In this document: positions 2,964 through 19,545 of the stretch, in pieces
How the letters are laid out: each line of letters begins with the position of its first letter
Numbering within the stretch: the stretch's first letter is position 1
NCBI GenBank assembly: GCA_040377305.1
Contig: JBEIPA010000002.1
Coordinates: forward strand, 32,001-96,000
Reading direction: 5' to 3'
Length of the DNA: 64,000 bases
Origin: Flavobacteriales bacterium
GTDB taxonomy: Bacteria > Bacteroidota > Bacteroidia > Palsa-965
Translations under genes and position numbers: made by a program
The notes under the pieces: model-generated
What the model was told of the DNA's origin: nothing
Databases searched by the model: none
What the model saw: only the letters and a program-made list of their open reading frames with translations

Positions 2964-5864
2964 ATGTCTACCCCCGCATCCGTACTGAATAGAACCGGAT
3001 GTCGTTGGTTGCAACGATTGCTGTTCCTATTAATTACTTTGAGTTGCGTTCATGCGCACGCCCAAACCCAACCTTCCTATTTCTTCCTCGGTGCAAAAGA
3101 ATTCGACGGCGTTCAGATTTACGATATTATTCAGGATAATGATCTGAACTATTGGATTGCTTCCGACAACGGACTTTACAAATACGATAGTTATTCGTTC
3201 GCGAAAGTGGAATGCGAAGGTGCACAGTCGCTTGCTGTGTTTGGTTTTGTAAAAAGTCTCACCGGTGAAATTTATTGTTACAATCTGAATAACCAGATTC
3301 TGCAGATCAAGCGCGACAAGTGTGCGGTGTTCTATAGTCTCAAACCCGAAGAACGTGCGTCGGACACTTATCTTTCCATTACTCCTGAAAATGAATTGCT
3401 GGTTTTTACCCGAACAATTCTACTCTTCACCAACGCTGGAACTCCGGTGAACATACCCAAACCCCGCTTATCCTACTATGGCTTTCCGTTTCAGACCTCA
3501 TCGGGTAAAACGATCAGTCACCTGGCCGATTCTGATTCGCTATTGATTTATGAAAACCGGCAAATACGTTATGTGAAAATGAATACAGGGCCTGACCAGA
3601 TTGACGGCGTCCTGAAATTTTTCACATTGAACAATAAGACGTTTGCAATTTCCACATCAGACAAAAACATCTACGCGTTTGATGAGCGTGATTACTCTGC
3701 TGTGATGGCACCATCAACAGACCTCGATAAGACCAAAGAGCCATTCCGGATATACAATGTGAATAGCACAGCCTGGGTTGCAGGTATAATTTCAGGAGTT
3801 CGCGTATTGTCTGATCAGGGACAACTTGAACTGTCTGACATGTACTATTCGCAGTATCTCATATCGGATGTATTCCAGGATGCGGAAGGGAATCTGTTGC
3901 TCAGCACATTCAATCATGGAATTCTGGTGGTGCCCGATATTAACGTTCCGGATGTTTTGAATATTGCCGGTGGTCACTCCATCATGAGTATACAGAGCGA
4001 TACTAAAATCGGAATGCTGATGGGGACGCTCACCGGAAAACTACTTGCCTACAAAGATGGAGTGTACACCACGCTGTCCGATTCCGGTGTAAGACCACTG
4101 CAATCGATTTTCAGTTGGCCCCAATTTCCATTCGTGATCTTTGACGATGGAGGAATAAAAGCGATGAACAAAGAAACCGGCACAATAACCCGTGTAGGAA
4201 TAGGTTCACTGAAGGATGCTTTGTGCATCAATGACTCCACCGTATATCTGGCGCTGAATATCGGACTGGCACACGTTACGTGGAACGGAGGAAATTCTTT
4301 CCATGCAGCTATCGTCCCTGACGTCCGGTTAAGATGCTATGCACTGGCGTACGCTCCCTCTGAAAATCTAATCTACGTTTCCACGTCAGATGGAGTGAAG
4401 ATGTTTGAACCGGGCGGTACCGTAGTGCCCTTGTTGCAAAACGGTTCTGCAGTATTTGCAAATGATATTACCTACGCAGATGGAGTAACTTATCTTGCCG
4501 GCAAGAACGGAATTCTGAAATGCGCTAACGGAAAAATTATCGGAACAATTTTGCCGATGATTCAGGATAAACCCGTTGAAATTCTGAAGTTCGAAGTACA
4601 GAATTCAATCATCAGCGCGATTACCGCCACTGGGTTTGCGCGATTCGACACCGAAGGTCATCTACTGATGCAACTGAACACGAAGCAAGGATTCTCCACG
4701 AATCGTATTTACAAATTCGATATTTCCGGCGATGAAATCTGGATCTGTCATTCACAGGGAGTGCAGAAACTAAGTGCTGAAATACTAAGCATTCCGGTAA
4801 CAAAACCGCTGATGCGCATTAGCGCTCTGAACGTAAATGATCAATCGGGTTCATTACTGAACGCCGGTGTATTTACCAGCGAAGAAAGAAAGTTCCGTTT
4901 CACCTTGTCTTCACCTACATTGCGTAATAAGGAAAACATCCGTTATCACTACCAACTGTCGGGATATGACGAAGCCTGGTTTATTTCCAACTACACCGAC
5001 AACCAGATTGTCTACAACGCATTGGCGCCAGGCGATTATGTTTTTACGGTTAAAGCAGAGAACTCCGGTGTGTTCAGTGATCCTGTTTCTTATTCGTTCA
5101 CAATTTCGGCCCCATTCTATTCCCGCTGGTGGTTCAGTGTGCTCATTGGTGTACTGTTGTTGCTGATCATCACTTTTGTTTACAGGTACAGACTTCAGCT
5201 TCAGGAGAAAAAAGCGAAGCTCGAAAACGAATTGCATGCATCCCGACTCACGGCGATTCAGTCGCAAATGAATCCGCACTTTATTTTTAACTCGCTGAAT
5301 TCTATCCAGGATCTTGTATTGAAAGGCGATGTGGACAATTCGTATACGTTCATTACCAAATTCTCCAATCTGGTTCGACGTACGCTTCACTATTCCGACA
5401 AAGACTTCGTTGAATTCAGTCAGGAAATAAAACTACTGGAGTTGTACCTCGCGCTTGAGAAATTGCGCTTTCGTGATGACTTCGAGTTCATTCTCGATAC
5501 GGAGGGAATTGATGACATCATGATTCCCCCAATGCTCATTCAGCCTTTCATCGAAAATTCCTTGCTGCACGGATTATTACACAAGGAAGGAAAGAAGAGG
5601 ATTACAATTACTTTTCGCCTGCTCGATAATCTCATTTGCACGGTGGAAGATAATGGTGTGGGTCGGGAGAAAGCGAAAGAAATCAAAAGCCGTCAACGTG
5701 CAGAACATGAGTCTTTCGCGGGTCAGGCAATTAAAAAGCGCTTTTCAATATTGAGCCGTCTGTTTCAGAGTGAATTGGGTTATACGTATGAAGACATGTA
5801 CGACGGAAAGCAAGCAATTGGCACCCGAGTGAAACTTACAATTCCGGTCAAACGAAACTTCTAG
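2964..5864 (+). CDS. LytS/YehU-type sensor histidine kinase with periplasmic beta-propeller and Y_Y_Y domain
   Basis: Signal-like N-terminus, propeller repeats, YHYQLSGYD...YNALAPGDYVFTV, one TM helix, LTAIQSQMNPHFIFNSLNSI H-box, IQPFIENSLLHG, VEDNGVG. Confidence 0.92.
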   Translation: MSTPASVLNRTGCRWLQRLLFLLITLSCVHAHAQTQPSYFFLGAKEFDGVQIYDIIQDNDLNYWIASDNGLYKYDSYSFAKVECEGAQSLAVFGFVKSLTGEIYCYNLNNQILQIKRDKCAVFYSLKPEERASDTYLSITPENELLVFTRTILLFTNAGTPVNIPKPRLSYYGFPFQTSSGKTISHLADSDSLLIYENRQIRYVKMNTGPDQIDGVLKFFTLNNKTFAISTSDKNIYAFDERDYSAVMAPSTDLDKTKEPFRIYNVNSTAWVAGIISGVRVLSDQGQLELSDMYYSQYLISDVFQDAEGNLLLSTFNHGILVVPDINVPDVLNIAGGHSIMSIQSDTKIGMLMGTLTGKLLAYKDGVYTTLSDSGVRPLQSIFSWPQFPFVIFDDGGIKAMNKETGTITRVGIGSLKDALCINDSTVYLALNIGLAHVTWNGGNSFHAAIVPDVRLRCYALAYAPSENLIYVSTSDGVKMFEPGGTVVPLLQNGSAVFANDITYADGVTYLAGKNGILKCANGKIIGTILPMIQDKPVEILKFEVQNSIISAITATGFARFDTEGHLLMQLNTKQGFSTNRIYKFDISGDEIWICHSQGVQKLSAEILSIPVTKPLMRISALNVNDQSGSLLNAGVFTSEERKFRFTLSSPTLRNKENIRYHYQLSGYDEAWFISNYTDNQIVYNALAPGDYVFTVKAENSGVFSDPVSYSFTISAPFYSRWWFSVLIGVLLLLIITFVYRYRLQLQEKKAKLENELHASRLTAIQSQMNPHFIFNSLNSIQDLVLKGDVDNSYTFITKFSNLVRRTLHYSDKDFVEFSQEIKLLELYLALEKLRFRDDFEFILDTEGIDDIMIPPMLIQPFIENSLLHGLLHKEGKKRITITFRLLDNLICTVEDNGVGREKAKEIKSRQRAEHESFAGQAIKKRFSILSRLFQSELGYTYEDMYDGKQAIGTRVKLTIPVKRNF

Positions 5865-5865
5865 T

Positions 5866-5933
5866 CCGTTCCTGAAGAAAATCGGGCGATTACAAAGAAA
5901 CAACACGACTGCAAAAGGCAACAGGTAAACTTG
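5866..5933 (+). promoter_or_regulatory. Putative LytTR-box promoter of the response regulator (autoregulation)
   Basis: CCGTTCCTGAA at 5866, degenerate second half-site at 5886, TAAACTTG at 5926 (40 bp after the second site, as at the other three promoters). Confidence 0.55.
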
Positions 5934-5937
5934 CACG

Positions 5938-6681
5938 ATGGAAAGAATCCGGGCCATAATAGTAGATGATGAAGAAAGCGCGCGCGACGTGCTTGAAAAT
6001 CTGCTGCGTCGTTTTTGTCCGGAGGTTGAAGTGCTCACGAAGCTTTCAAACATCCCACATGCCGTTGAAGCGTGTAATCAGTTGAAACCCGATCTGGTTT
6101 TTCTTGACATAGAAATGCCAAACTATGCAGGCTTCGAAATCGTGAAGTTTTTCGAGACTATTCCGTTCGAGATCATATTCGTTACAGCGTACGATAAATA
6201 TGCACTTCGCGCTTTTGAAATTTCCGCAATTGATTATTTGCTGAAGCCAGTTGACATAGATCGCCTTAAAGAAGCTGTATCGCGTGTGAAAAAGCAATCG
6301 GATCTCAAGCATCATTCCGATCGTCTCTCCTTATTAGGAACCACGCTTCAGTCGAAGGAAGTGAAAAGCATCATGGTCACTGACAAAGGATACCAGCAAA
6401 TTGTTCCTGTTGATTCCATCATCGCCATTGAGGCTGAAGAATCGTATTGCACCATTCACACGACAGACCGAAAATATACCGTCAGCAAAAACCTGAAGCA
6501 CTTCGAAACAGTTTTTGCAGATAGTCCACTATTCTTCCGCGTACACAAATCGTGGATCATTTCGAAGAAGCATATTCTGAATTATTCGAAATCGGATTTG
6601 TTGATCAATCTCTCCAATGGCTTGACCGCGCGCCTTTCCAAATACAAAAAGGCGGAGTTTGAAGAGATTCTTACCTCGTGA
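5938..6681 (+). CDS. LytTR-family response regulator
   Basis: IVDDE, DLVFLDIEMP phospho-acceptor, FVTAYDKYA, DYLLKP; LytTR domain FFRVHKSWII. Confidence 0.96.
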   Translation: MERIRAIIVDDEESARDVLENLLRRFCPEVEVLTKLSNIPHAVEACNQLKPDLVFLDIEMPNYAGFEIVKFFETIPFEIIFVTAYDKYALRAFEISAIDYLLKPVDIDRLKEAVSRVKKQSDLKHHSDRLSLLGTTLQSKEVKSIMVTDKGYQQIVPVDSIIAIEAEESYCTIHTTDRKYTVSKNLKHFETVFADSPLFFRVHKSWIISKKHILNYSKSDLLINLSNGLTARLSKYKKAEFEEILTS

Positions 6682-6772
6682 ACTTACCGTCCCGTTGAGG
6701 CAATTACAGACTAGCCGTAACTGTTTGTTTTGCAACAAGAATTCCTTCTGCGCATCAAAGCAAAAGTCATTG

Positions 6773-6878
6773 CGTTTATATGCAGTGGAATCTTAAGGCC
6801 ATTCAACATTCCGCCAGCTTCGGAATTCCACTGCATATAAACGAAATCCGTAACCACGTGGTTTCGTGGTTACGGATT
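6773..6878. repeat. Two adjacent inverted repeats between convergent genes (bidirectional terminator or REP-like)
   Basis: Perfect 19-bp arms 6773-6791 / 6825-6843 and perfect 14-bp arms 6845-6858 / 6865-6878. Confidence 0.7.
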
Positions 6879-6975
6879 CAAACAATTCACTGCTGGTAGA
6901 TTTATTTACCGGGAGCACTTTCAGCCATACTTTGCTTAGCTGCTAATGTTGCTCCAGATCTGCTCAAAGAAAAGA

Positions 6976-7680
6976 TTACGGACGGGTTCCTAAGGCAACC
7001 GCTCCTGATCCCATGCCGCCAAATGTTGCAGCACCAACAGCAGCACCCACCGGTCCGCCTGCTACAGCTCCAGCTATTCCGCCTGCGATTCCAAATCCGA
7101 TATCAGCGCAAACGATTGCCACAACGCGTAAACACCTCTTTCTGGCTGAGATCGGTCCTGGAGGAGTTACAGGTTCCTTTATCTCCCAGTACGCGGCACT
7201 GTGGCGTGCAATAGATCCTGCTCCAGAAAGAATAACAAATTCGGTTTCACTTAGTTTTCCGATTTTATTCTGCCAACTCACTAAAGCCTGTTTTATTTCC
7301 TTCACCGATAAACGGCCCTTTTGAATTAAACGCAGTTGTTTAAAAAGCTCAGCCAGCTTTTGATTCGCTTTTTCTGATAAAGCCGGATTTTTCTTCCATG
7401 TAAATGAGACGTTTTTTGGGTCGTAGTTTGCCTCCTTCGCCTCCTGGACTATTGCTTCATACTTTTTACGGGGAATTTTTCCGAAAGCGTTTTCGGGCAA
7501 AGACAGAAAGTACTTCTCACCAAGTGCGACTATCTTTTTGACACTCATTTTTGGGGATCTGCCGGGAAGCTTCTGAACAATGAAGTTTATCACTTCGTTG
7601 TGATAGTAACCAACCAATTCAGTTTTGCCGAAATCATATTCAGCTGCAAGGTTTGCAATTTCTAGTTGTTCTGGGTTCAT
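6976..7680 (-). CDS. Hypothetical protein with Gly/Ala-rich hydrophobic, bacteriocin-like C-terminal tail
   Basis: 234-aa ORF; GYYHN near N-terminus, SIARHSAAYW, then VCADIGFGIAGGIAGAVAGGPVGAAVGAATFGGMGSGAVALG. Confidence 0.7.
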   Translation of the reverse strand: MNPEQLEIANLAAEYDFGKTELVGYYHNEVINFIVQKLPGRSPKMSVKKIVALGEKYFLSLPENAFGKIPRKKYEAIVQEAKEANYDPKNVSFTWKKNPALSEKANQKLAELFKQLRLIQKGRLSVKEIKQALVSWQNKIGKLSETEFVILSGAGSIARHSAAYWEIKEPVTPPGPISARKRCLRVVAIVCADIGFGIAGGIAGAVAGGPVGAAVGAATFGGMGSGAVALGTRP

Positions 7681-7866
7681 CTTTTTGTTTTTTTGTCAAG
7701 ATTACCAATTTTATTGAATAATTAATTTATAATTCATTAACAGTCCATTTTTATTCATGAATGGACATTATAATCCTTTCAAATGATTTGAGTTTATTTA
7801 AAAAGTGTAGTTCGTCCGTTGGAACCGACGCCCTCGCGAAGAATCCAAGGTGCGCTTCCTTCCTGT

Positions 7867-7935
7867 CCGTTCCTGAAGCTGTTGGGCTGTTCGTGAGTTT
7901 CTGAATATTCCTCCGTTCGATGTGCTGTATACTTG
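7867..7935 (+). promoter_or_regulatory. Putative LytTR-box promoter
   Basis: CCGTTCCTGAA (7867) and CTGTTCGTGAG (7887), 20-bp period; TATACTTG at 7928. Confidence 0.65.
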
Positions 7936-7973
7936 ACCAGAATTTCAAAAACAACACCCTTAAACTTTAGTCC

Positions 7974-8888
7974 ATGAAAAAAATCATGCTTGCCGCTCTC
8001 TTTAGTGTTTCATTGAATGTGATGAACGCCCAAATCGATATGATCACATCACTGAAAGCTATGGATGGTGTTGTGTACACTGAGTACTATGCTGTGACTA
8101 TCGCTGAGCCTGGAAAAAACACGATCAGCGGGAAACGCTACGTTTCGACGGTTAGCCCGGTGAAGAATCGCTTTGGGCATATCGTCGGCTTCGATGCCCT
8201 GAGCAAGGAGAATCCAGCTGAAAAGGATATTCTTTACAACTACATGTACAATATCTTCGACCACTATACACATCCATCCTACTCCACCGGTTCTGCAAGT
8301 ACAGCACAGGTAATTATCAACGGATGCATTTTTGAACTGGAATATTTCGAAAGCACCACCCAGTTTGGAATTGATAAGATATGGATTCCTTCTGTTCCGA
8401 AAGACAAGGCAGCTGATCCCGTTTTCAAAGGATCCAAAATGGCTGATATGAAATCGATTGATCTCATGAAGCTTGTCAAAGACTATTTCGTGGAAATGAA
8501 AAAGATTCAGGATGCTAATCCTTACAATGCAACCATGCAGGAGCAGGCGAACACGATGAAGTTCATTGTTGATTCAACACAACTGACTTACGACAATGCC
8601 AATGCTGCTTACTGGAATTCTCCGGAAGGACAGGCTAAACTGAATCAATTGCGCAAGCCAAAAGTTACGTTGGTGAATGACACGCAAAGCGATGTACTCA
8701 TGTGTTATGGACAAGGTGTTTCAACCGTCCTCAAGCCGGGAGAGAAAAAAGAATTCAGCTGCGATAACGGTAAAATATTTAAAGGAAAACATCGTGAGAA
8801 TTCAGAACAGTTGGACAGTACCGGAGAAGTGCTGCTCAATCTTGATGGAAATAATTGCGGACGAGAAATAAAAGCTTCGACCCTTTAG
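7974..8888 (+). CDS. Secreted hypothetical protein
   Basis: 304-aa ORF with Sec signal MKKIMLAALFSVSLNVMNA-Q; small Cys-containing beta domain at C-terminus; no family recognised. Confidence 0.8.
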   Translation: MKKIMLAALFSVSLNVMNAQIDMITSLKAMDGVVYTEYYAVTIAEPGKNTISGKRYVSTVSPVKNRFGHIVGFDALSKENPAEKDILYNYMYNIFDHYTHPSYSTGSASTAQVIINGCIFELEYFESTTQFGIDKIWIPSVPKDKAADPVFKGSKMADMKSIDLMKLVKDYFVEMKKIQDANPYNATMQEQANTMKFIVDSTQLTYDNANAAYWNSPEGQAKLNQLRKPKVTLVNDTQSDVLMCYGQGVSTVLKPGEKKEFSCDNGKIFKGKHRENSEQLDSTGEVLLNLDGNNCGREIKASTL

Positions 8889-8902
8889 TTCAAAATAATT
8901 AC

Positions 8903-8944
8903 AAAAAAGACAGCACTTGCTTAGACGCAGGTGCTGTCTTTTTT
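8903..8944 (+). terminator. Rho-independent terminator
   Basis: AAAAAAGACAGCACTTGC / GCAGGTGCTGTCTTTTTT. Confidence 0.85.
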
Positions 8945-8956
8945 GTGCTGTATTGT

Positions 8957-9024
8957 CCGTTGCTGAAGCCGTTTGGCTGTTGGTGAACTCTATTTTTTCC
9001 CGAGTTGGGGTCGGTGTACGTTTG
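8957..9024 (+). promoter_or_regulatory. Putative LytTR-box promoter
   Basis: CCGTTGCTGAA (8957) and CTGTTGGTGAA (8977); perfect TACGTTTG at 9017. Confidence 0.7.
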
Positions 9025-9069
9025 TGGTAATTGAAATTGCCACTAATTCCCTTACACAAATTACGCAGT

Positions 9070-12000
9070 ATGAAAACCAGTCACTTATTTCTCGCCTTCT
9101 TCCTAATCTTCGGAATTCAATCAGGTTTCGCGCAAGCACCAAATTATGTTTGGGCAAAACGAATCGGTGGAACTGACATCGAAACAGGAAGGTCCATCGC
9201 CGTCGATGCAGCTGGAAATTCATATACCACTGGACAGTTTCGCGGGACCGTTGACTTTGACCCGGGCCCGGGAACCGCACTGGTTACAACTCTTGGTGTT
9301 GAGGATATTTTCATCACCAAACTGGACAATGCCGGAAACTATGTGTGGAACAGAAGAATTGGTAGTGCCACCTCGGAATACAGCTACTCAATCGCACTCG
9401 ATCCATCCGGAAATATTTACATAACTGGGCAATTCGCCGGCTCGGTAGATTTCGATCCAGGCGCAGGAGTTGCCACTTTAACTTCATTGGGCTCCTGGGA
9501 CGCATATGTTCTCAAACTTGACGTTTCCGGAAATTTCGTTTGGGCAAGACGATTTGGATCAACCTTAGCTGACATTGGACGTACCGTTACTGCAGATGCT
9601 GCTGGAAATGTTTACACAACCGGAACATACACAGGCACTGTAGATTTTGATCCGGGTGCGGGAACGAGCAATCTCGTAGCAGTTGGTGGTCTAGATGTTT
9701 TTATTTCCAAACTAGACGCAGCAGGGAATTTCGTTTGGGCACAATCAGTTGGTGGTACCGGAGCTGAAGAAGGTCGTGGCCTCATCGTTGATGGCACAGG
9801 CAATGTGTTCCTTTGTGGATACTTCGCTGCCACTGCGGATTTCGATCCAGGTGCGGGGACATTCAATTTAACTTCAGCAGGGTCTAACGACATATATCTG
9901 GTGAAATTAAATTCGGCCGGTACTTTTGTATGGGCTGTGAGCATGGGTGGCACACTTAGTGATGCGGCCGTGTCCATCGCACTCGATGCAGTAGGTAATA
10001 TTCAGATGGGCGGCAGTTTTAATGGCACTGCAGACTTTGATCCGGGTGTTGGAGTCAACAACTTGACTTCCGCCGGTGCTGCCGATATGTTTGTTTTAAA
10101 ATTAAACGCCACCGGATCTTTAATCTGGGTGACGCGAACAGGTGGAACAGGTGATGATAATGCCAATCAGATTGTTCTCGACCCTTTAGACAATGTATAT
10201 ATCGGTGGAGGCTTCAATGCTACGGTAGATTTTGACCCGGGTGCAGGAACTGTCAATCTGGTGTCATCCGGTGGCTTTGATATTTCAATTGCCAAACTGG
10301 ATGCATCCGGAAATTACCTATGGGCAGTTCGTATGGGCGGGATATCAAACGAGGCGGCATATTCAATTGCTTATCATTCCTCCGGCACAATTTACTCCAC
10401 AGGTGCTTTCGATGACGTGGTCGACTTCAATCCTGGTGCAGGCGTAGCAAACTTAACTTCAGCTGGTGCTCAAGAAGTGTTTGTTCAAAAGCTTTGTCAA
10501 CTTGCACCACAACCCGGCGTGATAAGCGGACCTTCACCTATCTGTTCCGGTACAACGAATACGTATAGCATTACACCTGTACCTACTGCGACTACTTATA
10601 CTTGGAGCACACCTGCTGGATGGACAGGTACCTCAACAACAAATAGTATTTCAACTACCGCAAGTTTAACGAGTGGAAATGTATCTGTGGTTGCAAACAA
10701 TGCGTGCGGTGCGTCAGTAGTACGTACGTTAAGCGTCACAGTAACTCCTACTCCTACATTTCCTACAGTAATAACCGGCAACACAAATGTCTGTCCCGGC
10801 TCAACAAACATATATACTATCGGATTCGTTAATGGTGCAACACTTTACACATGGACTTATCCTGTGGGCTGGACAGGTCCTGCAACTTCGACGATTCCAA
10901 GTGTGTCTACAACTGCTGGTCCTAACAGCGGTACAATTTCGGTGACTGCAAGTAACTCGTGCGGGTCTGCTGGTCCGCGAACACTCGTGGTAACGGTTAC
11001 TGCAGGACCAACATCTACCGTTTCTTCGCAAACCAATATTTCCTGTAACGGCGGTACAAACGGTGCTGCAACAGTGCTTGCTTCCGGAGGAACATCACCA
11101 TATACTTATGTATGGGCTCCATCAGGCGGAACTGCGGCCACGGCTACAGGTTTAGCTGCGAACACATACACGTGTACAATCACAGATGCAGCCGGCTGCA
11201 CGCGCGCACAAACGGTTACCATCACGCAACCGTCTGCGCTCGCTTCATCCATTTCCTCGCAAACAAATGTTTCCTGTAACGGAGGCGCGAACGGAGCCGC
11301 AACGGTTTCAGTGAGCGGAGGATCTCCTTTGTACACGTATTCATGGGCACCGAGTGGTGGAACAGCTGCAACTACAACAGGAAGATCAGCAGGAACATAT
11401 ACGTGTACAATTACAGATGCAAACGGGTGTACGCGCACACAAACAGTTTCATTAACACAACCCACCGCAATCACTTCTTCAGTTTCATCACAAACAGGTG
11501 CTTCATGCAATGGCGGATCTAATGGAACTGCTACAGTGCTCGCAGGTGGTGGAATCTCTCCTTACACCTATTCCTGGGCGCCAAGCGGCGGAACTGCAGC
11601 AACAGCAACAGGACTTAGCGCAATTACTTACACCTGTACGATTACAGATGCGAACTCATGTACACGTACACAAACAGTTACGATCACACAGCCTACTGCA
11701 ATCACTTCATCCGTTTCTGCACAAACAAATGTGTTGTGTAACGGAGCAAGCACAGGAGCTGCAACAGTTGCTGTTTCAGGCGGAACACCAGGATACACTT
11801 ACTCATGGGCTCCTTCTGGCGGAACTGCTGCAACAACTACAGCACGACCAGCTGGAATCTATACTTGTACAATAACCGATGCAAGCGGCTGCACACGAAC
11901 GCAAACTGTAAACATCACACAACCAACTGCAATCACTTCTTCGATTTCTGCTTCGACCAACGTGACTTGCAATGGAGGAAACAACGGAACTGCAACTGTT

Positions 12001-14175
12001 CTTGCTGGTGGCGGAACTCCAGGTTATACTTACCTCTGGGCTCCGAGCGGAGGAACAACTGCAACTGCAACCGGATTGTCTGCACTGGTGACTTACACGT
12101 GCACAATTACAGATGCAAACGGATGTACTCGCACACAAACAGTAACGTTAACACAACCTGCGGGAATGTCGTCGTCTGTCGCATCACAAGTAAATGTGTC
12201 GTGCAACGGTGGCGCTAATGGTTCTGCAACAATTACGGTAAGCGGTGGAACTGGTCCTTACACGTATGCTTGGTTACCATCTGGCGGAACAACTGCTTCC
12301 ATCACCGGAAGAACTGCAGGTGTTTATACTTGTACAATCACAGATGCTGGTGGATGTACACGCACACAAACAGTTAACATCGCACAACCTTCCGCTATCA
12401 CTTCTGCGGTTTCATCGCAAACCAACGTTTCGTGTAACGGCGGAAACAACGGCGCAGCTACAATTTCTGTTTCAGGTGGAACTCCGGGATACACTTACTT
12501 GTGGGCTCCTTCCGGCGGAACAACAGCATCAATTACCGGAAGAACATTCGGAACGTATACCTGCACAATCACGGATGCAAACGGATGCACAAGCACACAA
12601 ACCGTAAACATCACACAACCTACTGTGCTTACCGCAGCGATTGCTTCTCAGACTGATGTTTCCTGTAATGGAGGAAGTAATGGTGACATCACTGTTACTG
12701 CATCAGGTGGCACTTCAGGTTACACGTACTTATGGTCACCAAGCGGAGGAACAGCTGCAACTGCAACAGGTTTAACTGCGACGACATACTCCTGTCTGAT
12801 TACTGACGCAAACGGATGTTCAACGACACAAACGGCAACGCTCACACAACCGTCTGCAATCAACGCCACCGTTTCTGCACAAACCGATGTAACGTGCAAC
12901 GGAGGAAGCGATGGTTCTGCAACAATGAACGCAACCGGAGGAGTTGGAGGATTCACATTTGCATGGACTCCAACAGGTGGTAATACTGCAACGGCAACTG
13001 GATTGTCGGCACTTATAACATACACCTGCACAATCACGGATGCAAACGGATGTTCAATTGCACAAACTGTTACGATCACAGAACCGAACGCAATTGCCTC
13101 TTCTGTTTCTTCGCAGACAGATCTCACGTGCAACGGTTCTAACGACGGAGCTGCAACGATTACAGCATCAGGTGGAACAGGCTTACTCAGCTATGACTGG
13201 ACTCCGGGAAATCCAACAGGCGATGGAACTGTTAGCGTTACTGGCTTGTCGGCACAAACATGGACGTGCACAATCACAGACGCAAACATGTGTATGCATA
13301 CGCAGGTAGTTACTATCACAGAACCAACCGCTGTAACAACATCTGTGACTTCACAAACTGATCCAACCTGTAATGCAGGCAACGATGGAACTGCTGACAT
13401 TGCTGCTACAGGTGGCGTAGGAAACTTCACATATCTCTGGTCACCTTCGGGTGGAACTGCCGCAACTGCAACAGGACTTGCTGCAGGATCATATACTTGT
13501 CTTGTTACAGATGCAAACGGATGCGCAGCTTCAGAAATTATCACACTTAGTGAGCCTGCCGCAATCACGTCTTCGCAAACTGTAACACTTTGTGCGGGAC
13601 AAACGCTTACAGTTGGTGCATCGACTTACACGGTAACCGGAATTTACAATGAAACACTTACTGCGCTGAACGGTTGCGATAGCACAGTAACAACTGACCT
13701 CACTATTAACGCTTCAATTGATGTGTCCACAACTGTAGTCGGAAACACTGCAACTGCAAACCAGAATGGTGCAACTTACCAGTGGATCGATTGTCTCAAC
13801 AGCAATGCACCACTTGCAGGAGAAACGAATCAGTCATTGACACCGGCAGTGAGTGGAGACTATGCAGTAATTGTAACAGTTGGTTCATGTAGCGACACCA
13901 GTGCGTGCACGAATGTCATCACCGGAATAGATGCGCTTGAAGTAAATAACTTTAGCGTGTATCCGAATCCAACAAACGGAGTCGTTACAATTCAGCTGAA
14001 TACATTCTCACCGAATGCACAGATCGAAGTATTCAACGCACTTGGTCAGATGGTAATCACCGCGAAGCCTACGAACACAGTTACAACGGTTGAACTTCCT
14101 GAAGACAACGGAATCTATCTCGTGCGAGTAACGATCAATGGAATGAGCACAACGCAGAAAGTGATTAAAGAGTAA
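9070..14175 (+). CDS. Large T9SS-secreted adhesin-like protein: 7 SBBP (DFDPG) propeller repeats, 2 PKD-like domains, 11 SprB repeats, T9SS CTD
   Basis: Start moved to ATG 9070 (MKTSHL.. signal peptide); seven DF[DN]PG repeats; eleven CNG...[IV]TDA.[GSM]C repeats; VYPNPTNG...GIYLVRV CTD. Confidence 0.9.
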   Translation: MKTSHLFLAFFLIFGIQSGFAQAPNYVWAKRIGGTDIETGRSIAVDAAGNSYTTGQFRGTVDFDPGPGTALVTTLGVEDIFITKLDNAGNYVWNRRIGSATSEYSYSIALDPSGNIYITGQFAGSVDFDPGAGVATLTSLGSWDAYVLKLDVSGNFVWARRFGSTLADIGRTVTADAAGNVYTTGTYTGTVDFDPGAGTSNLVAVGGLDVFISKLDAAGNFVWAQSVGGTGAEEGRGLIVDGTGNVFLCGYFAATADFDPGAGTFNLTSAGSNDIYLVKLNSAGTFVWAVSMGGTLSDAAVSIALDAVGNIQMGGSFNGTADFDPGVGVNNLTSAGAADMFVLKLNATGSLIWVTRTGGTGDDNANQIVLDPLDNVYIGGGFNATVDFDPGAGTVNLVSSGGFDISIAKLDASGNYLWAVRMGGISNEAAYSIAYHSSGTIYSTGAFDDVVDFNPGAGVANLTSAGAQEVFVQKLCQLAPQPGVISGPSPICSGTTNTYSITPVPTATTYTWSTPAGWTGTSTTNSISTTASLTSGNVSVVANNACGASVVRTLSVTVTPTPTFPTVITGNTNVCPGSTNIYTIGFVNGATLYTWTYPVGWTGPATSTIPSVSTTAGPNSGTISVTASNSCGSAGPRTLVVTVTAGPTSTVSSQTNISCNGGTNGAATVLASGGTSPYTYVWAPSGGTAATATGLAANTYTCTITDAAGCTRAQTVTITQPSALASSISSQTNVSCNGGANGAATVSVSGGSPLYTYSWAPSGGTAATTTGRSAGTYTCTITDANGCTRTQTVSLTQPTAITSSVSSQTGASCNGGSNGTATVLAGGGISPYTYSWAPSGGTAATATGLSAITYTCTITDANSCTRTQTVTITQPTAITSSVSAQTNVLCNGASTGAATVAVSGGTPGYTYSWAPSGGTAATTTARPAGIYTCTITDASGCTRTQTVNITQPTAITSSISASTNVTCNGGNNGTATVLAGGGTPGYTYLWAPSGGTTATATGLSALVTYTCTITDANGCTRTQTVTLTQPAGMSSSVASQVNVSCNGGANGSATITVSGGTGPYTYAWLPSGGTTASITGRTAGVYTCTITDAGGCTRTQTVNIAQPSAITSAVSSQTNVSCNGGNNGAATISVSGGTPGYTYLWAPSGGTTASITGRTFGTYTCTITDANGCTSTQTVNITQPTVLTAAIASQTDVSCNGGSNGDITVTASGGTSGYTYLWSPSGGTAATATGLTATTYSCLITDANGCSTTQTATLTQPSAINATVSAQTDVTCNGGSDGSATMNATGGVGGFTFAWTPTGGNTATATGLSALITYTCTITDANGCSIAQTVTITEPNAIASSVSSQTDLTCNGSNDGAATITASGGTGLLSYDWTPGNPTGDGTVSVTGLSAQTWTCTITDANMCMHTQVVTITEPTAVTTSVTSQTDPTCNAGNDGTADIAATGGVGNFTYLWSPSGGTAATATGLAAGSYTCLVTDANGCAASEIITLSEPAAITSSQTVTLCAGQTLTVGASTYTVTGIYNETLTALNGCDSTVTTDLTINASIDVSTTVVGNTATANQNGATYQWIDCLNSNAPLAGETNQSLTPAVSGDYAVIVTVGSCSDTSACTNVITGIDALEVNNFSVYPNPTNGVVTIQLNTFSPNAQIEVFNALGQMVITAKPTNTVTTVELPEDNGIYLVRVTINGMSTTQKVIKE

Positions 14176-14204
14176 TCTCAACAAATCCGCATAGCCCGTA
14201 TGAG

Positions 14205-14235
14205 AAGGGAAGATCGAAAGGTCTTCCCTTTTTTT
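14205..14235 (+). terminator. Rho-independent terminator (GAAA tetraloop)
   Basis: AAGGGAAGATC-GAAA-GGTCTTCCCTT plus T tract. Confidence 0.85.
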
Positions 14236-14237
14236 GT

Positions 14238-14305
14238 CCGTTCCTGAACGAAATCGGCTGTTCCTGAACGAAATCTACCCATTGCCTGAGCTCTGACTAA
14301 GTTTG
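14238..14305 (+). promoter_or_regulatory. Putative LytTR-box promoter
   Basis: CCGTTCCTGAA (14238) and CTGTTCCTGAA (14258); GTTCCTGAACGAAATC is an exact direct repeat; perfect TAAGTTTG at 14298. Confidence 0.7.
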
Positions 14306-14328
14306 AAGAAGCAATAATCCATCTCAGC

Positions 14329-16701
14329 ATGAAAAAGATTCTACTATTCACCACAATGTTGTTTAGCTCTGCCATTGCGAACGCGCAAACATTCGGCTGG
14401 GCAGGAAGTCTAGGTAGCGGAAGCAACGAAGAAGGACGTGGTGTTGCCGTTGACGCCAGCGGAAATGTTTACTCAGTTGGTTATTTTACTGGTTCAGGCG
14501 ACTTTGATCCGGGTCCGGGTGTTACGACTCTAACGTCTGGTGGTTCTAACGACGTTTATGTTTCAAAACTGGATGCGTCAGGGAATTTTGTGTGGGCAAT
14601 ACGAATGGGAGGCACCGGGCCTCAAACCGGAGTTGCCATTGCTTTGGATAATTCAGGCAACGTTTACATCACCGGAAACTTCAATAACACAATTGACATG
14701 GATCCGGGTGCAGGTGTTGTAAATATTACTTCACTGGGAGCACAGGATATTTTCATTGGTAAATATGATCCGTCGGGAAACCATGTTTGGTCGAAGCGCT
14801 TTGGAAGTGCATTTCATGAGGCGGCGGCCAATATCACTGTTGACGCTTCGGGCAATGTCCTGACCTGCGGTTTGTTTACCGGAACCACAGATTTTGACCC
14901 GGGCGCTGGTACAGTCAATCTTACTGCAAGTACAGTAAGTGATGGGTACATTTCCAAATTGGATGCGAATGGTAACTATGTTTGGGCAAAACAAATTGGA
15001 TTGAGCGGATCGAATACTCCTACTTCAATAAAGTGTGATGGCTCTGGAAATATTTACCTCACCGGTGGATATGAGAGCACCACCGACTTTGATCCGGGCG
15101 CAGGATCGTATCCAATAACTTCTGCCGGATCAGTGGATATATTTTTTCTGAAGCTGGATACCAATGGCGACTTCAGCTGGGCTGGAAGCATGGGCGGAAC
15201 TTCGTATGACCTCGGACGTTCCCTTGCGATTGATGCAGGCGGCAATGTCGTAATGACCGGCGAATTTCAAGGAACTGCAGATCTAGATCCCACCGTTGGA
15301 GTCTACAATCTAACTTCCTTCGCGATCAAGGACATTTTCATTGCAAAATTTAATCCTGCTACGGCTACCTTCATATGGTCGGTAATGGTTGGCGAGACCT
15401 ATAATGACATTGGCTATAGCATCGCTACAGATGCCAGCAATAATATTTATCTGACTGGTGATTTTACCGGTACAGTTGATTTTGATCCAGGTGCAGGAAG
15501 CGTTTTACTTACATCTGACGGCAACCAAAAAGATTGTTTTATCCTCAAGCTCGATGCCTCCGGAAATTATATGTGGGCTGGCAAATTCGGTTCTTCATTC
15601 TTAGCTGATGCTGCCTATTCCATTTATGTAGACGCTTCCACAAATATTTACACCACAGGATCTTATCAGGACGTGGTTGATTTTGACCCGGGAGTTGGTA
15701 CAAACATTCTCACTTCGGGCGGTCAGGTAGACGTATACGTTCTGAAGTTAGAACAATGCGTTGCACCAGTAGCACCTATGAATACAACACCTGCAGCATC
15801 ATTAACTGTGTGCGGACCCGGTTCCACTACACTCACAGCAAGTGGCTCCGGCACCTTGGGTTGGTATTCTGCTTCTACAGGAGGAACCTATCTGGGTGGA
15901 GGCACAAGTTTCACAACTCCTGTTCTAAGCAATGACACGGTTTACTATGTACAAGACAGCACGTGTGTTGACGGACCACGCACAGCAGTTACTGTTACGT
16001 TCAATCCGGCAATGAGCACCTCTGTTTCTTCCCAAACGAATGTTACGTGCTTTGGAGGAATTGATGGCAACGCAGGAGTAAGCGTGAGTGGCGGAACACC
16101 AAACTACTCGTATCTATGGACACCGTCCGGTGGAACGCAACCTGTAGAATTTAACATGAGTGCAGGAACATACACCTGCACAGTTACCGATGCTGCAGGT
16201 TGTACCACTGCGCAAATTGTTACGATCACAGAGCCAGGTGCAATTGACGTTACGACAACACTGAACGGCAACATGCTTTCTGCAAATCAGAATGGCGCAA
16301 CGTATCAGTGGATCGATTGTCTCAACGGTAACGCACCAGTTGCAGGAGAAACCAATCAGACCTTTACTCCACAAGCGAACGGAGACTATGCAGTAATTGT
16401 AACTGTTGGTCCGTGCAGCGATACCAGTGCTTGCACAAATGTGATCACAGGAATCGACGCGCATGATAACGTTGCATTCAACCTGTATCCGAATCCGACA
16501 AACGGAATCGTTACCATTCAGCTGAACACATTCTCACCGAATGCACAGATCGAAGTATTCAATGCACTTGGTCAGATGGTAATCACTGCGAAACCAACAA
16601 ACACAGTTACTACAGTTGAACTTCCTAAAGAAAATGGAATCTATCTCGTGCGTATAACATGTGATGGAGTGAGCAGCACAACGCGTGTGGTGAAAGAATA
16701 G
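14329..16701 (+). CDS. T9SS-secreted SBBP-repeat propeller protein with Ig-like domain, one SprB repeat and T9SS CTD (paralog of 9070-14175)
   Basis: Signal peptide; seven DFDPG-like repeats; WYSASTGG...YYVQ Ig-like module; LYPNPTNG CTD nearly identical to the upstream paralog. Confidence 0.9.
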   Translation: MKKILLFTTMLFSSAIANAQTFGWAGSLGSGSNEEGRGVAVDASGNVYSVGYFTGSGDFDPGPGVTTLTSGGSNDVYVSKLDASGNFVWAIRMGGTGPQTGVAIALDNSGNVYITGNFNNTIDMDPGAGVVNITSLGAQDIFIGKYDPSGNHVWSKRFGSAFHEAAANITVDASGNVLTCGLFTGTTDFDPGAGTVNLTASTVSDGYISKLDANGNYVWAKQIGLSGSNTPTSIKCDGSGNIYLTGGYESTTDFDPGAGSYPITSAGSVDIFFLKLDTNGDFSWAGSMGGTSYDLGRSLAIDAGGNVVMTGEFQGTADLDPTVGVYNLTSFAIKDIFIAKFNPATATFIWSVMVGETYNDIGYSIATDASNNIYLTGDFTGTVDFDPGAGSVLLTSDGNQKDCFILKLDASGNYMWAGKFGSSFLADAAYSIYVDASTNIYTTGSYQDVVDFDPGVGTNILTSGGQVDVYVLKLEQCVAPVAPMNTTPAASLTVCGPGSTTLTASGSGTLGWYSASTGGTYLGGGTSFTTPVLSNDTVYYVQDSTCVDGPRTAVTVTFNPAMSTSVSSQTNVTCFGGIDGNAGVSVSGGTPNYSYLWTPSGGTQPVEFNMSAGTYTCTVTDAAGCTTAQIVTITEPGAIDVTTTLNGNMLSANQNGATYQWIDCLNGNAPVAGETNQTFTPQANGDYAVIVTVGPCSDTSACTNVITGIDAHDNVAFNLYPNPTNGIVTIQLNTFSPNAQIEVFNALGQMVITAKPTNTVTTVELPKENGIYLVRITCDGVSSTTRVVKE

Positions 16702-16726
16702 TTTCTAAACAGATATTCCCCCTCTG

Positions 16727-16759
16727 AAAGGAAAGATCGAAAGGTCTTTCCTTTTTTTG
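16727..16759 (+). terminator. Rho-independent terminator; contains the left copy of a 27-bp direct repeat (16733-16759)
   Basis: AAAGGAAAGATC-GAAA-GGTCTTTCCTTTTTTT. Confidence 0.85.
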
Positions 16760-16783
16760 CTAAGTGCAACCGTAACTTATCAT

Positions 16784-17434
16784 TTAACGTTTCTTCTTCT
16801 TCAACGGCTTAAAATACGGTCGTGATTTTACCGTTACAGGGGCACTCGCAATGTAATTTGTCCCGGTACTTCCTGTCACAATTGATAGCTCTGCATATGT
16901 TGTGGTACCAGACGACACGGAATTACCATATCCATAAACCACAGAATAAGATTCTGATCTCTTTGTAGGAGGATATTTTTCAGTCGCTAAACTTTCCGTT
17001 CGCAACTTCGCGTAAGCTGCCTTAAAATCTTCAAAAAAATCTTCAAGTACAAACTGAGTCTTTCCATCAATCACATCTAAGTGCTTAGGAGAAGAATCCG
17101 GATGACAACAACGTGAAGTTAGTAAGACGGAATCGCCCGTTCGGTACTGATGAAGTAATGGTCCCCGCAGTTGCTCAAATATCCATTGTGCATTCTTCTG
17201 ATACCACTCATTTTCAAACAATGTTTTAAGCGAACGTTCAAATCTATTTTTTGATTCTCCGTACTTGTTATGCGGTGAGGAATCTGAGAATGAACCTAAA
17301 TACTCAATTCCTGTACAAATTGCCATGAATGCTTGAAAGTCAATTTTTGAATCAATTAATGATTGAACCAACGATACAATCACCTCGCCGTGTCCGATAG
17401 CATTAGTCTCGTACTTAATCACCAATTTGTTCAT
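16784..17434 (-). CDS. Putative HEPN-like (RxxxxH) protein
   Basis: ATG at 17434 (TTG 17452 alternative); helical AFMAICTGIEYLG...RFERSLKTLF...IFEQLRGPLLHQY with R-x4-H; low-complexity Ser/Thr/Gly tail ending KKKKR. Confidence 0.55.
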   Translation of the reverse strand: MNKLVIKYETNAIGHGEVIVSLVQSLIDSKIDFQAFMAICTGIEYLGSFSDSSPHNKYGESKNRFERSLKTLFENEWYQKNAQWIFEQLRGPLLHQYRTGDSVLLTSRCCHPDSSPKHLDVIDGKTQFVLEDFFEDFKAAYAKLRTESLATEKYPPTKRSESYSVVYGYGNSVSSGTTTYAELSIVTGSTGTNYIASAPVTVKSRPYFKPLKKKKR

Positions 17435-17485
17435 GAATTCGAATATTCTCAAGAAAATAAATATAGTTGCGGTCTATTAATGAGG

Positions 17486-18229
17486 TTACACCAGCTTATT
17501 GTCGAGCGCATATTTTTTCCCGAGAGGAGTGATCCAGATTGCCTCCGAAACTCCAGTAAAACTAATCAGCTTTTCTGATTTCGCTTGATCAAGCGCCACA
17601 TCTATCATCGTTCGAGACATCCCTGGAATCATAGAACGAACCTCACTGTACACAACAAACTCTCGCTGACCATGTTCAAAAATTTGAATCATCACTCGCA
17701 TAACCTCCATCAATGTATCGTGCTGCGGCGTTTTACTTCCTACTGCAACTGGTGAGAATGGCTTGTAACCTATTTCTGGCTTTTTAAACAATGGGGCATC
17801 ATGTATTTTCCTCAACAGTTCATCTGACGCATATTCATAATCATCATCCTTTGAATAATTTATGTACAGTTTAGATTTCAAAAATGTCGGAACTTCAGTT
17901 GTACCACTTTGACGTATAACAGGAATAATTTTACTCTCACTAATACTCTTCATTAGACTTGAAGTAATTATCATCTTTTCATACCCAACGCCACCACTAC
18001 CAGCATTCGCTTTCTCAACATACTTACTCGTACATATCATCAATATATAGTCTGCCTTGGCAAGATTGCTTTCCATAAAATGAGGGACGTCATCACCTGC
18101 GGTTAAATCCCACTGATCCAAAGTTGCATCAACTCCGTTCTGTCTTAAGCGGGTTGCCAATTCTAGAACCCACTTTTTATGATCAAGTGAATCGTGCGAA
18201 TAAGAAACAAATACTTTGGGGATTTTCAT
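17486..18229 (-). CDS. TIR/SEFIR domain protein with C-terminal winged-helix-like domain
   Basis: ATG at 18229; PKVFVSYSHDS..HKKWV..LATRLR.NGVD..LDQWDL..G; GGVGYE with conserved Glu; KIIPVIR; tail ITPLGKKY resembles a wHTH wing. Confidence 0.85.
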   Translation of the reverse strand: MKIPKVFVSYSHDSLDHKKWVLELATRLRQNGVDATLDQWDLTAGDDVPHFMESNLAKADYILMICTSKYVEKANAGSGGVGYEKMIITSSLMKSISESKIIPVIRQSGTTEVPTFLKSKLYINYSKDDDYEYASDELLRKIHDAPLFKKPEIGYKPFSPVAVGSKTPQHDTLMEVMRVMIQIFEHGQREFVVYSEVRSMIPGMSRTMIDVALDQAKSEKLISFTGVSEAIWITPLGKKYALDNKLV

Positions 18230-18281
18230 ATTGGATAAATATATTCTAACACGAAATAATTTGACGACAGTCAAAAACGAG

Positions 18282-18641
18282 TTATTGCGGCAAAGATGTC
18301 TTCCATGTATTTATCTCAAACAGAACTGCACAATCACCTACCTCGTTCCACATAGTTTTTTGCTTACCCCAGAAGTAAAAGTGATTAGTCGTTCCGTCTG
18401 CATTCTTGCTCTCAGTATTAGTTCCCGTGCCGGAATATATAATAACATGATCGCCAGACTTAACCTTCTTTGGTTTGAACCAAAATGCATCTTTCTGAGA
18501 ATTGGAAATCGTCGAAGCGCTAGAATAAACTGTGTCAAAAATTATGTAGTAGACAAGATCAGCGTCCTCAAGAACCCTTAAGTGCAGTCGCTCCTTGCTA
18601 GCTACCCCACGATCAGCAATTTGTATGATATCTAATTTCAT
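18282..18641 (-). CDS. Small all-beta protein, lamin-tail-domain (LTD)-like
   Basis: 119 aa; ERLHL...FWF....VKSGDHVIIYSGTG......FYFWG....MWNEVGDCAVL resembles the LTD pattern; no signal peptide. Confidence 0.6.
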   Translation of the reverse strand: MKLDIIQIADRGVASKERLHLRVLEDADLVYYIIFDTVYSSASTISNSQKDAFWFKPKKVKSGDHVIIYSGTGTNTESKNADGTTNHFYFWGKQKTMWNEVGDCAVLFEINTWKTSLPQ

Positions 18642-19102
18642 TTTTTGACCGCTCTCCCAATTGAGGCACTAATTGTTAATACTAATCCAATTATGAGACA
18701 TAAGATACCATGAATACTATTGGCGTCCCAAAAATAAGGTGCTAGCCCGAATATTGCTCCCCCCAACCCAACACCCACGCCGAACAGAATTTCCATTGCC
18801 CTGTCAGCTTTCAACTTTTCACCCAAAACTGACGCCTTTTTATCGGCTTCATGAAAACTAGTCACATAGCTTTTTAAGTTTTCCTTTTCATTTTCAGCTT
18901 CCTCGAGCATCTCTAACAACATTTTCTGAGTGCCCGTTTGAGAAAGTTCCTCGTCGGTAAGTTGTCTGCGAACATTACTGAGTGCCTGTCTTCTACCAGA
19001 AGCAGGAGCACTAATTTGTTCAGCTGATGCAAGAGTTTCCTTGCCTGAACTAAGATCTGGTGAAATAGGAGGCTCTTCGGGATTAGTGTCGTTCTTGGAC
19101 AT
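18638..19102 (-). CDS. Coiled-coil protein with two C-terminal transmembrane helices
   Basis: 154 aa; charged helical middle, then ILFGVGVGLGGAIFGLA and GILCLIIGLVLTISASIG; ATGA overlap with the downstream gene. Confidence 0.75.
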   Translation of the reverse strand: MSKNDTNPEEPPISPDLSSGKETLASAEQISAPASGRRQALSNVRRQLTDEELSQTGTQKMLLEMLEEAENEKENLKSYVTSFHEADKKASVLGEKLKADRAMEILFGVGVGLGGAIFGLAPYFWDANSIHGILCLIIGLVLTISASIGRAVKK

Positions 19103-19493: not shown

Positions 19494-19518
19494 TCACAAT
19501 AAACCTTCGCTACGTTGG

Positions 19519-19545
19519 AAGATCGAAAGGTCTTTCCTTTTTTTG
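19519..19545 (+). repeat. Right copy of the 27-bp direct repeat (terminator-derived)
   Basis: Identical to 16733-16759. Confidence 0.9.

Follow-up and report, generated by a model that had tools for sequence, protein, structure and literature searches.

Operators bound by regulators with a LytTR domain are textbook knowledge in Firmicutes and Escherichia coli. We analyzed a 64,000-nucleotide (nt) window (the whole stretch, positions 32,001 to 96,000 of the forward strand of contig JBEIPA010000002.1, assembly GCA_040377305.1) from a Flavobacteriales bacterium, a host that appears to belong to an uncultured lineage. In this window, genes for a LytS-type sensor kinase and a LytTR response regulator lie next to an array of genes for secreted and surface proteins, and a repeat made of two half-sites precedes each of five predicted promoters. 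This repeat is very probably where the adjacent regulator binds; after phosphorylation by the kinase, the regulator would activate the five promoters. AgrA, ComE, PlnC, BlpR and VirR regulate their own genes and control secreted products (bacteriocins or toxins). This locus, too, has secreted products, and control of the regulator's gene by its own product is predicted.

LytTR proteins bind cooperatively to paired repeats of 9-11 nt with spacers of 11-13 nt (PMC4847170). The repeats lie just upstream of the -35 element, and activation of the regulator's own gene is frequent (PMC6193735); these and the other published descriptions used here come from excerpts of the papers cited. The repeat described here has the format 9+11 (period 20) or 9+12 (period 21), within the published range (PMC4847170, PMC6193735), and one LytTR Regulatory System (LRS) of Streptococcus mutans also has 9+11, period 20 (PMC6193735). 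The operators of AgrA, ComE, PlnC, BlpR and VirR are in this range as well (PMC4847170). Their tandem repeats are spaced by two turns of the helix and lie directly ahead of the core promoter, as they do here. Compared with these systems, period 20 is at the short end of the range, and the cargo here consists of surface proteins of the type IX secretion system (T9SS), not bacteriocins or toxins. No peptide pheromone gene was seen, and none was looked for.

The E. coli pairs YpdA/YpdB and BtsS/BtsR are similar in having a PF06580 kinase, a receiver-LytTR regulator and two direct repeats upstream of the target (PMC4847170). Unlike those pairs, this one has a large extracytoplasmic Y_Y_Y sensor with one membrane segment, and its targets form an array of separately promoted genes. 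The promoters are of the Bacteroidota -7 type, and the repeat differs in sequence. The best NCBIfam match of the regulator was BtsR (137 bits, cut-off 246), and LytR scored 125 bits (cut-off 375). Both scores are below the equivalog cut-offs, and the regulator is not assigned to the BtsR or LytR orthologs.

LRSs have direct repeats 4-11 bp upstream of the -35/-33 element and positive autoregulation (PMC6193735), both as proposed here. We rejected assignment to this class (HdrRM, BrsRM), since the partner here is a PF06580 kinase rather than a membrane inhibitor and the regulator has a receiver. In LRS-like operons of Bacteroides, repeats are predicted before a TAnnTTTG box; those repeats have period 22 and are farther from the box than here (PMC6193735). 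The core of the AlgR site of Pseudomonas aeruginosa, CCGTTCGTC, resembles our half-site, with a near-identical CCGTTC (PMC4064291). However, AlgR sites are scattered and far upstream (PMC4064291), whereas those described here are strictly paired and at a fixed distance. In our literature search, which left most subscription papers outside, no experimentally tested operator came up for any LytS/LytTR pair of Bacteroidota; the predicted LRS-like repeats of PMC6193735 were all that did. The proposed switch is well supported and of a familiar type, and its mechanism would not surprise specialists. What appears distinctive, judged from sequence, is the cargo array with one promoter per gene, the split between spacings of 20 and 21, and the predicted leaderless message for the regulator.

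Five paired repeats precede predicted promoters

The site consensus is CCRTTSCTGAA-N9-CYRTTSSTGAA, with one promoter per gene and terminators between genes. Three pairs with period 20 had been reported in a first-pass annotation, and their coordinates, and those of their boxes, are all correct. Site 3 (7867..7897, +; CCGTTCCTGAA / CTGTTCGTGAG, halves at 7867/7887, 39.9 bits) has its -7 box, TATACTTG, at 7928..7935 (+), 41 nt past the second half, with a predicted start at 7940. Site 4 (8957..8987, +; CCGTTGCTGAA / CTGTTGGTGAA, halves at 8957/8977, 44.4 bits) is followed after 40 nt by TACGTTTG (9017..9024, +; predicted start 9029), and site 5 (14238..14268, +; CCGTTCCTGAA / CTGTTCCTGAA, halves at 14238/14258, 43.5 bits), also after 40 nt, by TAAGTTTG (14298..14305, +; predicted start 14310). 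From the first half to the TAnnYTTG box, the distance was 60-61 nt at all three pairs. Starts were predicted 12 nt after the first base of the box, which was taken as -12 to -5, the span of the flavobacterial -7 box (PMC9723704).

The other two sites are less regular. Site 1 (5866..5897, +) begins one base past the stop codon of the kinase gene and has a strong first half (CCGTTCCTGAA, 5866-5876) and a decayed second half (5887-5897). Its box, TAAACTTG (5926..5933, +), is at offset 60, which puts the predicted start on the first base of the lytTR start codon (the A of ATG, 5938). The full first half-site and the box had been described earlier and are confirmed. Site 2 (7733..7764, -; CCATTCATGAA / CTGTTAATGAA, period 21, 28.6 bits) lies upstream of a gene for a 234-amino-acid (aa) protein, with the box of this divergent promoter, TAATCTTG, at 7697..7704 (-), offset 60, and a predicted start at 7692. 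This minus-strand site had been missed: the regulon was first counted as four promoters, and with this site the predicted count is five. An extra GTCCGTT noted near 7814 exists, but as a half-site it scores -1.2 bits and has no partner, and therefore it is not a site. The divergent promoter region (7681-7810) has a GC content of just 21%, unlike the other four promoters.

The repeat is rare elsewhere. The expression CYGTTSSTGA matched 7 times in the window, always on the plus strand and at the sites described. In the 5.175-Mb genome, the half-site as first defined matched 206 times and the exact pair 3 times, all in this locus. From the observed half-site frequency, about 0.004 exact pairs are expected at one spacing, a post hoc figure because the pattern was derived from these very sites. 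A sigma-70 scan gave 14 sites, compared to 18.9 in shuffled sequences, with a model that lies outside this promoter type. A search for RNA data over 5500-9500 listed no run, a result that bears on expression in neither direction.

The repeat and box are conserved in related genomes

We compared the genome containing the window with 40 others (41 in total). An ortholog of the LytTR regulator (65-85% identity) was present in 9 of the 40, all among the 24 genomes of the same genus; the next-best matches in other genomes were 48% and 46% identical. The 9 ortholog loci and these two made up the 11 loci compared. The ortholog loci contained 20 intergenic pairs, mostly one ahead of each co-oriented downstream gene. 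The genes without a site included a second NHL-type gene and a patatin gene (G008), a patatin gene (G024), a 478-aa gene (G023) and later genes (G012). In the 48% and 46% loci, none of the downstream genes was preceded by a site of this kind.

The 20 relative sites had been selected by the repeat alone, yet each is followed by TAnnnTTG at an offset of 60 or 61 (rate of 0.006 in shuffled downstream DNA). Together with the three period-20 pairs of the window, the offset was 60-61 at 23 of 23 sites. Using a matrix built from the 20 relative sites, the three pairs of the window took the top ranks in the genome, at 44.4, 43.5 and 39.9 bits. The next score was 20.2 bits; that is, no distant member with period 20 scored above 20.2 bits outside the locus, and the match with that score has no box. 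Run at period 21, the same matrix led to site 2 (7764, minus strand), the highest score in the genome at that period. One genome, G012, contributed 2 of the 20 training sites, 1 of the 34 lytTR-upstream regions, 1 of the 12 pattern-positive genomes and one row of the tree discussed below. No conclusion rests on it.

The motif and the regulator occur together

A refined pattern, scored with up to 2 mismatches, was found in 12 of the 41 genomes; every one of the 10 whose LytTR ortholog reaches 65% identity was positive. The other 29 genomes had no match, and the reversed control gave 0. The remaining positives were G007, in which the kinase gene and the start of lytTR lie at a contig end that cuts the ortholog, and G001, a genome that is 71% complete and whose sites precede a homolog of the 304-aa secreted orphan protein of our locus and a 791-aa gene. 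That is, 11 of the 12 positive genomes carry the ortholog. A looser pattern was positive in 33 of 41 genomes and did not discriminate.

A GTDB scan with the exact 31-letter pattern gave 39 distinct sites. Every one is in a Bacteroidota record, and Crocinitomicaceae are represented among them. In 32 of the 39, an ortholog with 57% identity or more lies within 10 kb. The strict box stands at 60 or 61 in 27; a single site has a box at another offset, 33. Excluding the 5 sites already seen in the relatives, the ortholog was nearby in 28 of 34 and the strict box present in 22 of 34. Because kin are not independent, these counts are not a formal test. The repeat travels with the adjacent LytTR regulator across dozens of other genomes, and thus it is likely the docking site of that regulator.

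Promoter geometry is conserved upstream of varied genes

Among the GTDB sites, the 27-nt linker between the repeat and the box had an identity of 0.28, compared to 0.26 in shuffled sequences, and the linkers of the five sites of the window are 11-41% identical. The 39 downstream proteins fell into 12 BLAST clusters, the largest of which (21 proteins) consists of multi-domain T9SS cargo joined by shared parts. Of the 29 downstream proteins scanned, 17 have a T9SS sorting domain and 10 have no family; the bodies of the proteins with a sorting domain are SBBP, laminin-G, SprB, FG-GAP or DUF5122. Because the linker is not conserved and the genes vary, the geometry itself appears to be under selection. 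Pattern matches inside genes numbered only 3 in 48 loci (760 kb), none with a box.

The period was 20 at 52 of 54 cargo sites. Cargo sites outside the seed set were also scored at periods 19-22, and 29 of 32 chose 20, although the matrix and the seed pattern themselves favour this period. A purine is at the predicted start (box +12) in 46 of the 54 cargo promoters, compared to 19-43% at the four preceding positions. Just 3 of the 54 have TTG in the -33 window, and there is no conserved -33 element. The repeat stops some 30 nt short of the -7 box, which leaves 6-7 nt between the repeat and the usual position of the -33 element (spacing from PMC6193735). By these features, the cargo promoters are predicted weak core promoters with an upstream activator site.

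In two relatives, one operator stands in front of the gene for a familyless 1024-aa protein, followed by a patatin-like phospholipase gene, which is cargo of another kind (L023 9481-14445, L022 5156-10126). In two other loci there are runs of genes for secreted proteins of ~150 aa, each gene with an operator; one of these promoters has a third repeat (L076 7562-9506, L075 10001-11761).

A predicted promoter for the regulator itself

The first half-site directly follows the kinase stop codon in 33 of 34 distinct ortholog loci, a position that was not searched by the GTDB scan. Across the 34 lytTR-upstream regions, the second half was best at period 21 in 24 and at period 20 in 7, and was not positive in 3, one of which is from this genome. 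A TAnnnTT box is at offset 60 or 61 in 28 regions, with the start codon 12-15 nt past the first base of the box, so that the predicted leader of lytTR is 0-3 nt (0 nt in this genome). The lytTR message is thus predicted to be leaderless or nearly so; leaderless messages make up 5.5% in Flavobacterium psychrophilum (PMC9723704). The kinase gene starts 21 nt past the upstream gene and has no site ahead of it, and therefore the loop would amplify only the regulator.

Proposed mechanism and alternatives

We propose that the kinase senses an outside cue and phosphorylates the regulator at Asp57. By analogy with known systems, a pair of regulator molecules would sit in head-to-tail order on a single face of the helix, immediately ahead of the -33 position, and bring in sigma-A polymerase to a promoter that is weak without them. 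Five monocistronic promoters would then be turned on: that of the regulator, that of the divergent gene, that of the secreted orphan and those of two T9SS surface proteins. The promoter between the kinase stop and the lytTR start would create a positive loop, raising the level of the regulator and not that of the kinase. Judging by the size of the extracytoplasmic sensor and by the cargo (propeller, SprB, laminin-G, FG-GAP), the cue may be contact with a surface, polymer or protein, and the cargo points to attachment or surface interaction.

Control by the adjacent LytS/LytTR pair had been put forward in the first-pass annotation, and every comparative test that we ran agreed with it. The support comes from co-occurrence, a fixed distance with a free linker, the purine peak at the start, and the differing repeat of the paralog (below). 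Several findings weigh against this reading. The pattern used to choose the training sites came from the window itself, and the related genomes are not independent; the agreement in other genomes is thus confirmation and not blind discovery. Among the 39 GTDB sites, 12 have no strict box (most have a TAnnnTT[ACT]-type variant) and 7 have no ortholog in view. Of these 7, 5 have less than 2 kb of upstream sequence, and the others have 5.6 kb (L084) and 10 kb (L086). In this genome, the second half of site 1 has decayed to -3 to -9 bits. Self-activation, as first proposed, is well supported across the clade and weaker here, and the positive loop is probably weakened in this genome. Finally, the genome has 20 LytTR domains, and the closest paralog (43% identical, contig C28) has a related repeat, ..TTCRTGAA with period 21, that scores 18.1 bits on our matrix and resembles the period-21 sites here.

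These last two findings favor binding of some or all sites by another LytTR paralog, alone or by cross-talk, with the C28 protein the likeliest candidate and the period-21 sites (divergent gene and lytTR) the likeliest to be shared; the repeat of the sister clade (CGNTTCRTGAA-like, period 21) does overlap this repeat in sequence. We consider such binding improbable. The period-20 motif is confined to genomes and loci with this ortholog, and G027, which has the sister paralog (63% identical to that on C28) and its repeat, was negative for the refined pattern. A quick tree of 54 proteins placed the 32 orthologs together on one side of a branch (99). They share the segments A[QEMR]ESY and LSKY[KR], present in no paralog; the loop segments of the sister are ADGAY and LSRERK, compared to AEESY and LSKYKK here. 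The next branch (G038, 48%) has different LytTR segments and lacks the motif. These comparisons support one motif per LytTR clade, and cross-talk with the sister clade may occur at the two period-21 sites. In a search aimed at the DNA-contact residues of AgrA, the LytTR domain matched only 3d6w (E 0.004), which gave no mapping of those residues. Around the 20 LytTR genes, a crude search for repeats gave scattered candidates among the matches listed. Of the 4 sister-clade loci examined, 3 have the clade's own repeat upstream of the next gene and 2 have it upstream of lytTR; among these loci are G000 contig C28 43789-44800, L101 and L031.

That the adjacent regulator binds and represses is highly unlikely. 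Some LytTR proteins also repress, for example AlgR at rhlA (PMC4064291). However, the spacing described above leaves the core promoter uncovered, the -33 element is absent in 51 of the 54 cargo promoters, and the layout is that of an activator (PMC6193735). We give just as little credence to the notion that the repeats bind no regulator and are passive leftovers of gene or promoter duplication, or serve for recombination in a cassette array. The two T9SS genes are indeed paralogous, with ~80% identical 3' ends and near-identical terminators, the sites abut terminators at gene borders, and the cargo varies among genomes. But the linkers are dissimilar in the window and at shuffle level in the GTDB set, and the site precedes unrelated genes (at least 12 BLAST clusters), with a conserved distance to the box and a conserved purine at the start. 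In addition, the repeats are direct and phased to the promoter box. The attC-type sites of integrons are inverted repeats, and integron arrays have an integrase. No integrase family was found among the 10 neighboring proteins, the only part of the window that was scanned for one.

Activation by the adjacent regulator is thus the reading that we prefer. A further idea, which we offer tentatively and think somewhat doubtful, is that this Bacteroidota LytTR clade runs a plug-in secretion array, in which each cargo gene gained receives a copy of the operator at the exact distance, and that a one-base difference in spacing carries information. Cargo would be marked by two strong halves at period 20; a period of mostly 21 with a weak second half would mark the regulator's own leaderless message. 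Such spacing could set thresholds, and insulation among paralogs as well, because 21 is also the spacing of the sister paralog. The locus yields a precise and portable motif that marks otherwise uncharacterized secreted proteins as co-regulated. It also offers a design for an inducible promoter, and a case in which to test what prevents 20 LytTR domains in one genome from being confused with each other.

An exact site with a box precedes a T9SS gene in L086 (position 10001), and neither of its 10-kb flanks contains a LytTR gene; it is likely a distant member of a regulon, as L086 is from the same isolate as L081, which bears the ortholog.

Genes of the locus and neighboring features

The kinase (966 aa; 2964..5864, +; assigned by Pfam and hydropathy) has a large N-terminal region with a Y_Y_Y domain that is predicted to be periplasmic, and a single hydrophobic segment at about residues 717-743. 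Its PF06580 domain scores 79.6 bits, with His772 in an intact H box and with the N box and DNG box present. The regulator (247 aa; 5938..6681, +) consists of a receiver (PF00072, 73.7 bits; residues Asp57 and Lys103) and a LytTR domain (PF04397, 61.9 bits) with the clade-specific segments AEESY, SKNLK, RVHKS and LSKYKK. Two long hairpins (6772-6843 and 6844-6879; 6772..6879) separate the convergent lytTR and 234-aa genes and likely terminate one or both of them. No second copy of 6772..6879 was found in the genome, and an Rfam scan of 5500-17500 gave 0 matches.

The 234-aa protein (6976..7680, -), encoded by the divergent gene and predicted to be the fifth target, has a Gly/Ala-rich hydrophobic C-terminus, no Pfam or NCBIfam family and no evident signal peptide. 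Atlas assigned a homolog to unnamed Bacteroidota clusters at 0.95 with low recognition, which is weak evidence. When its alignment was compared to metagenomes, 0 of 593 candidates were confirmed, and among 35 genomes of the order there were just 3 matches, all weak. The weak relatives are lipoprotein-like genes (L117 922-2554, L118 955-2552, L116 192-1010), and in two genomes they lie tail to tail with another LytTR gene, the same layout as in the window.

The 304-aa secreted orphan (7974..8888, +) has an N-terminus like a signal peptide and recurs as cargo at this locus among relatives. It has no Pfam or NCBIfam family, a profile search for a solved relative gave a best E of 1, and Atlas scores were only 0.77. 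Its structure model (predicted local distance difference test 81, predicted template modelling score 0.59) had no Foldseek match at E up to 0.001.

The two T9SS cargo genes encode proteins of 1701 aa (9070..14175, +; SBBP propeller, two PKD-like domains, SprB repeats in 11 matched stretches, and a type A C-terminal sorting domain) and 790 aa (14329..16701, +; SBBP propeller, Ig-like domain, SprB and a type A sorting domain). Their propellers are 45% identical. The 3' ends of the genes, covering the sorting domain and terminator (13700-14240 and 16241-16759), have 80% DNA identity, which suggests duplication or exchange of C-terminal modules.

The first-pass annotation had given each target its own terminator, and there are terminator-like T-run hairpins after all three plus-strand targets. 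The hairpin at 8901..8946 (+) has 20 pairs with an A run before it and a T run after it. That at 14204-14228, with its T run (14204..14235, +), abuts site 5. The third (16726-16751 plus T run; 16726..16758, +) closes the array and is a near copy of 14204-14235.

Directly after the array is a stretch of four genes on the minus strand (16784-19102) with 39.7% GC, compared to 45% in the genome. One of its open reading frames, of 262 aa, has a TIR/SEFIR domain (PADLOC bSEFIR model, 270 bits), and the stretch is likely a small anti-phage island. Beyond it, at 19517-19544, there is a third near copy (29/30 nt) of the terminator hairpin of the T9SS genes, and the low-GC island may have entered between similar terminators.

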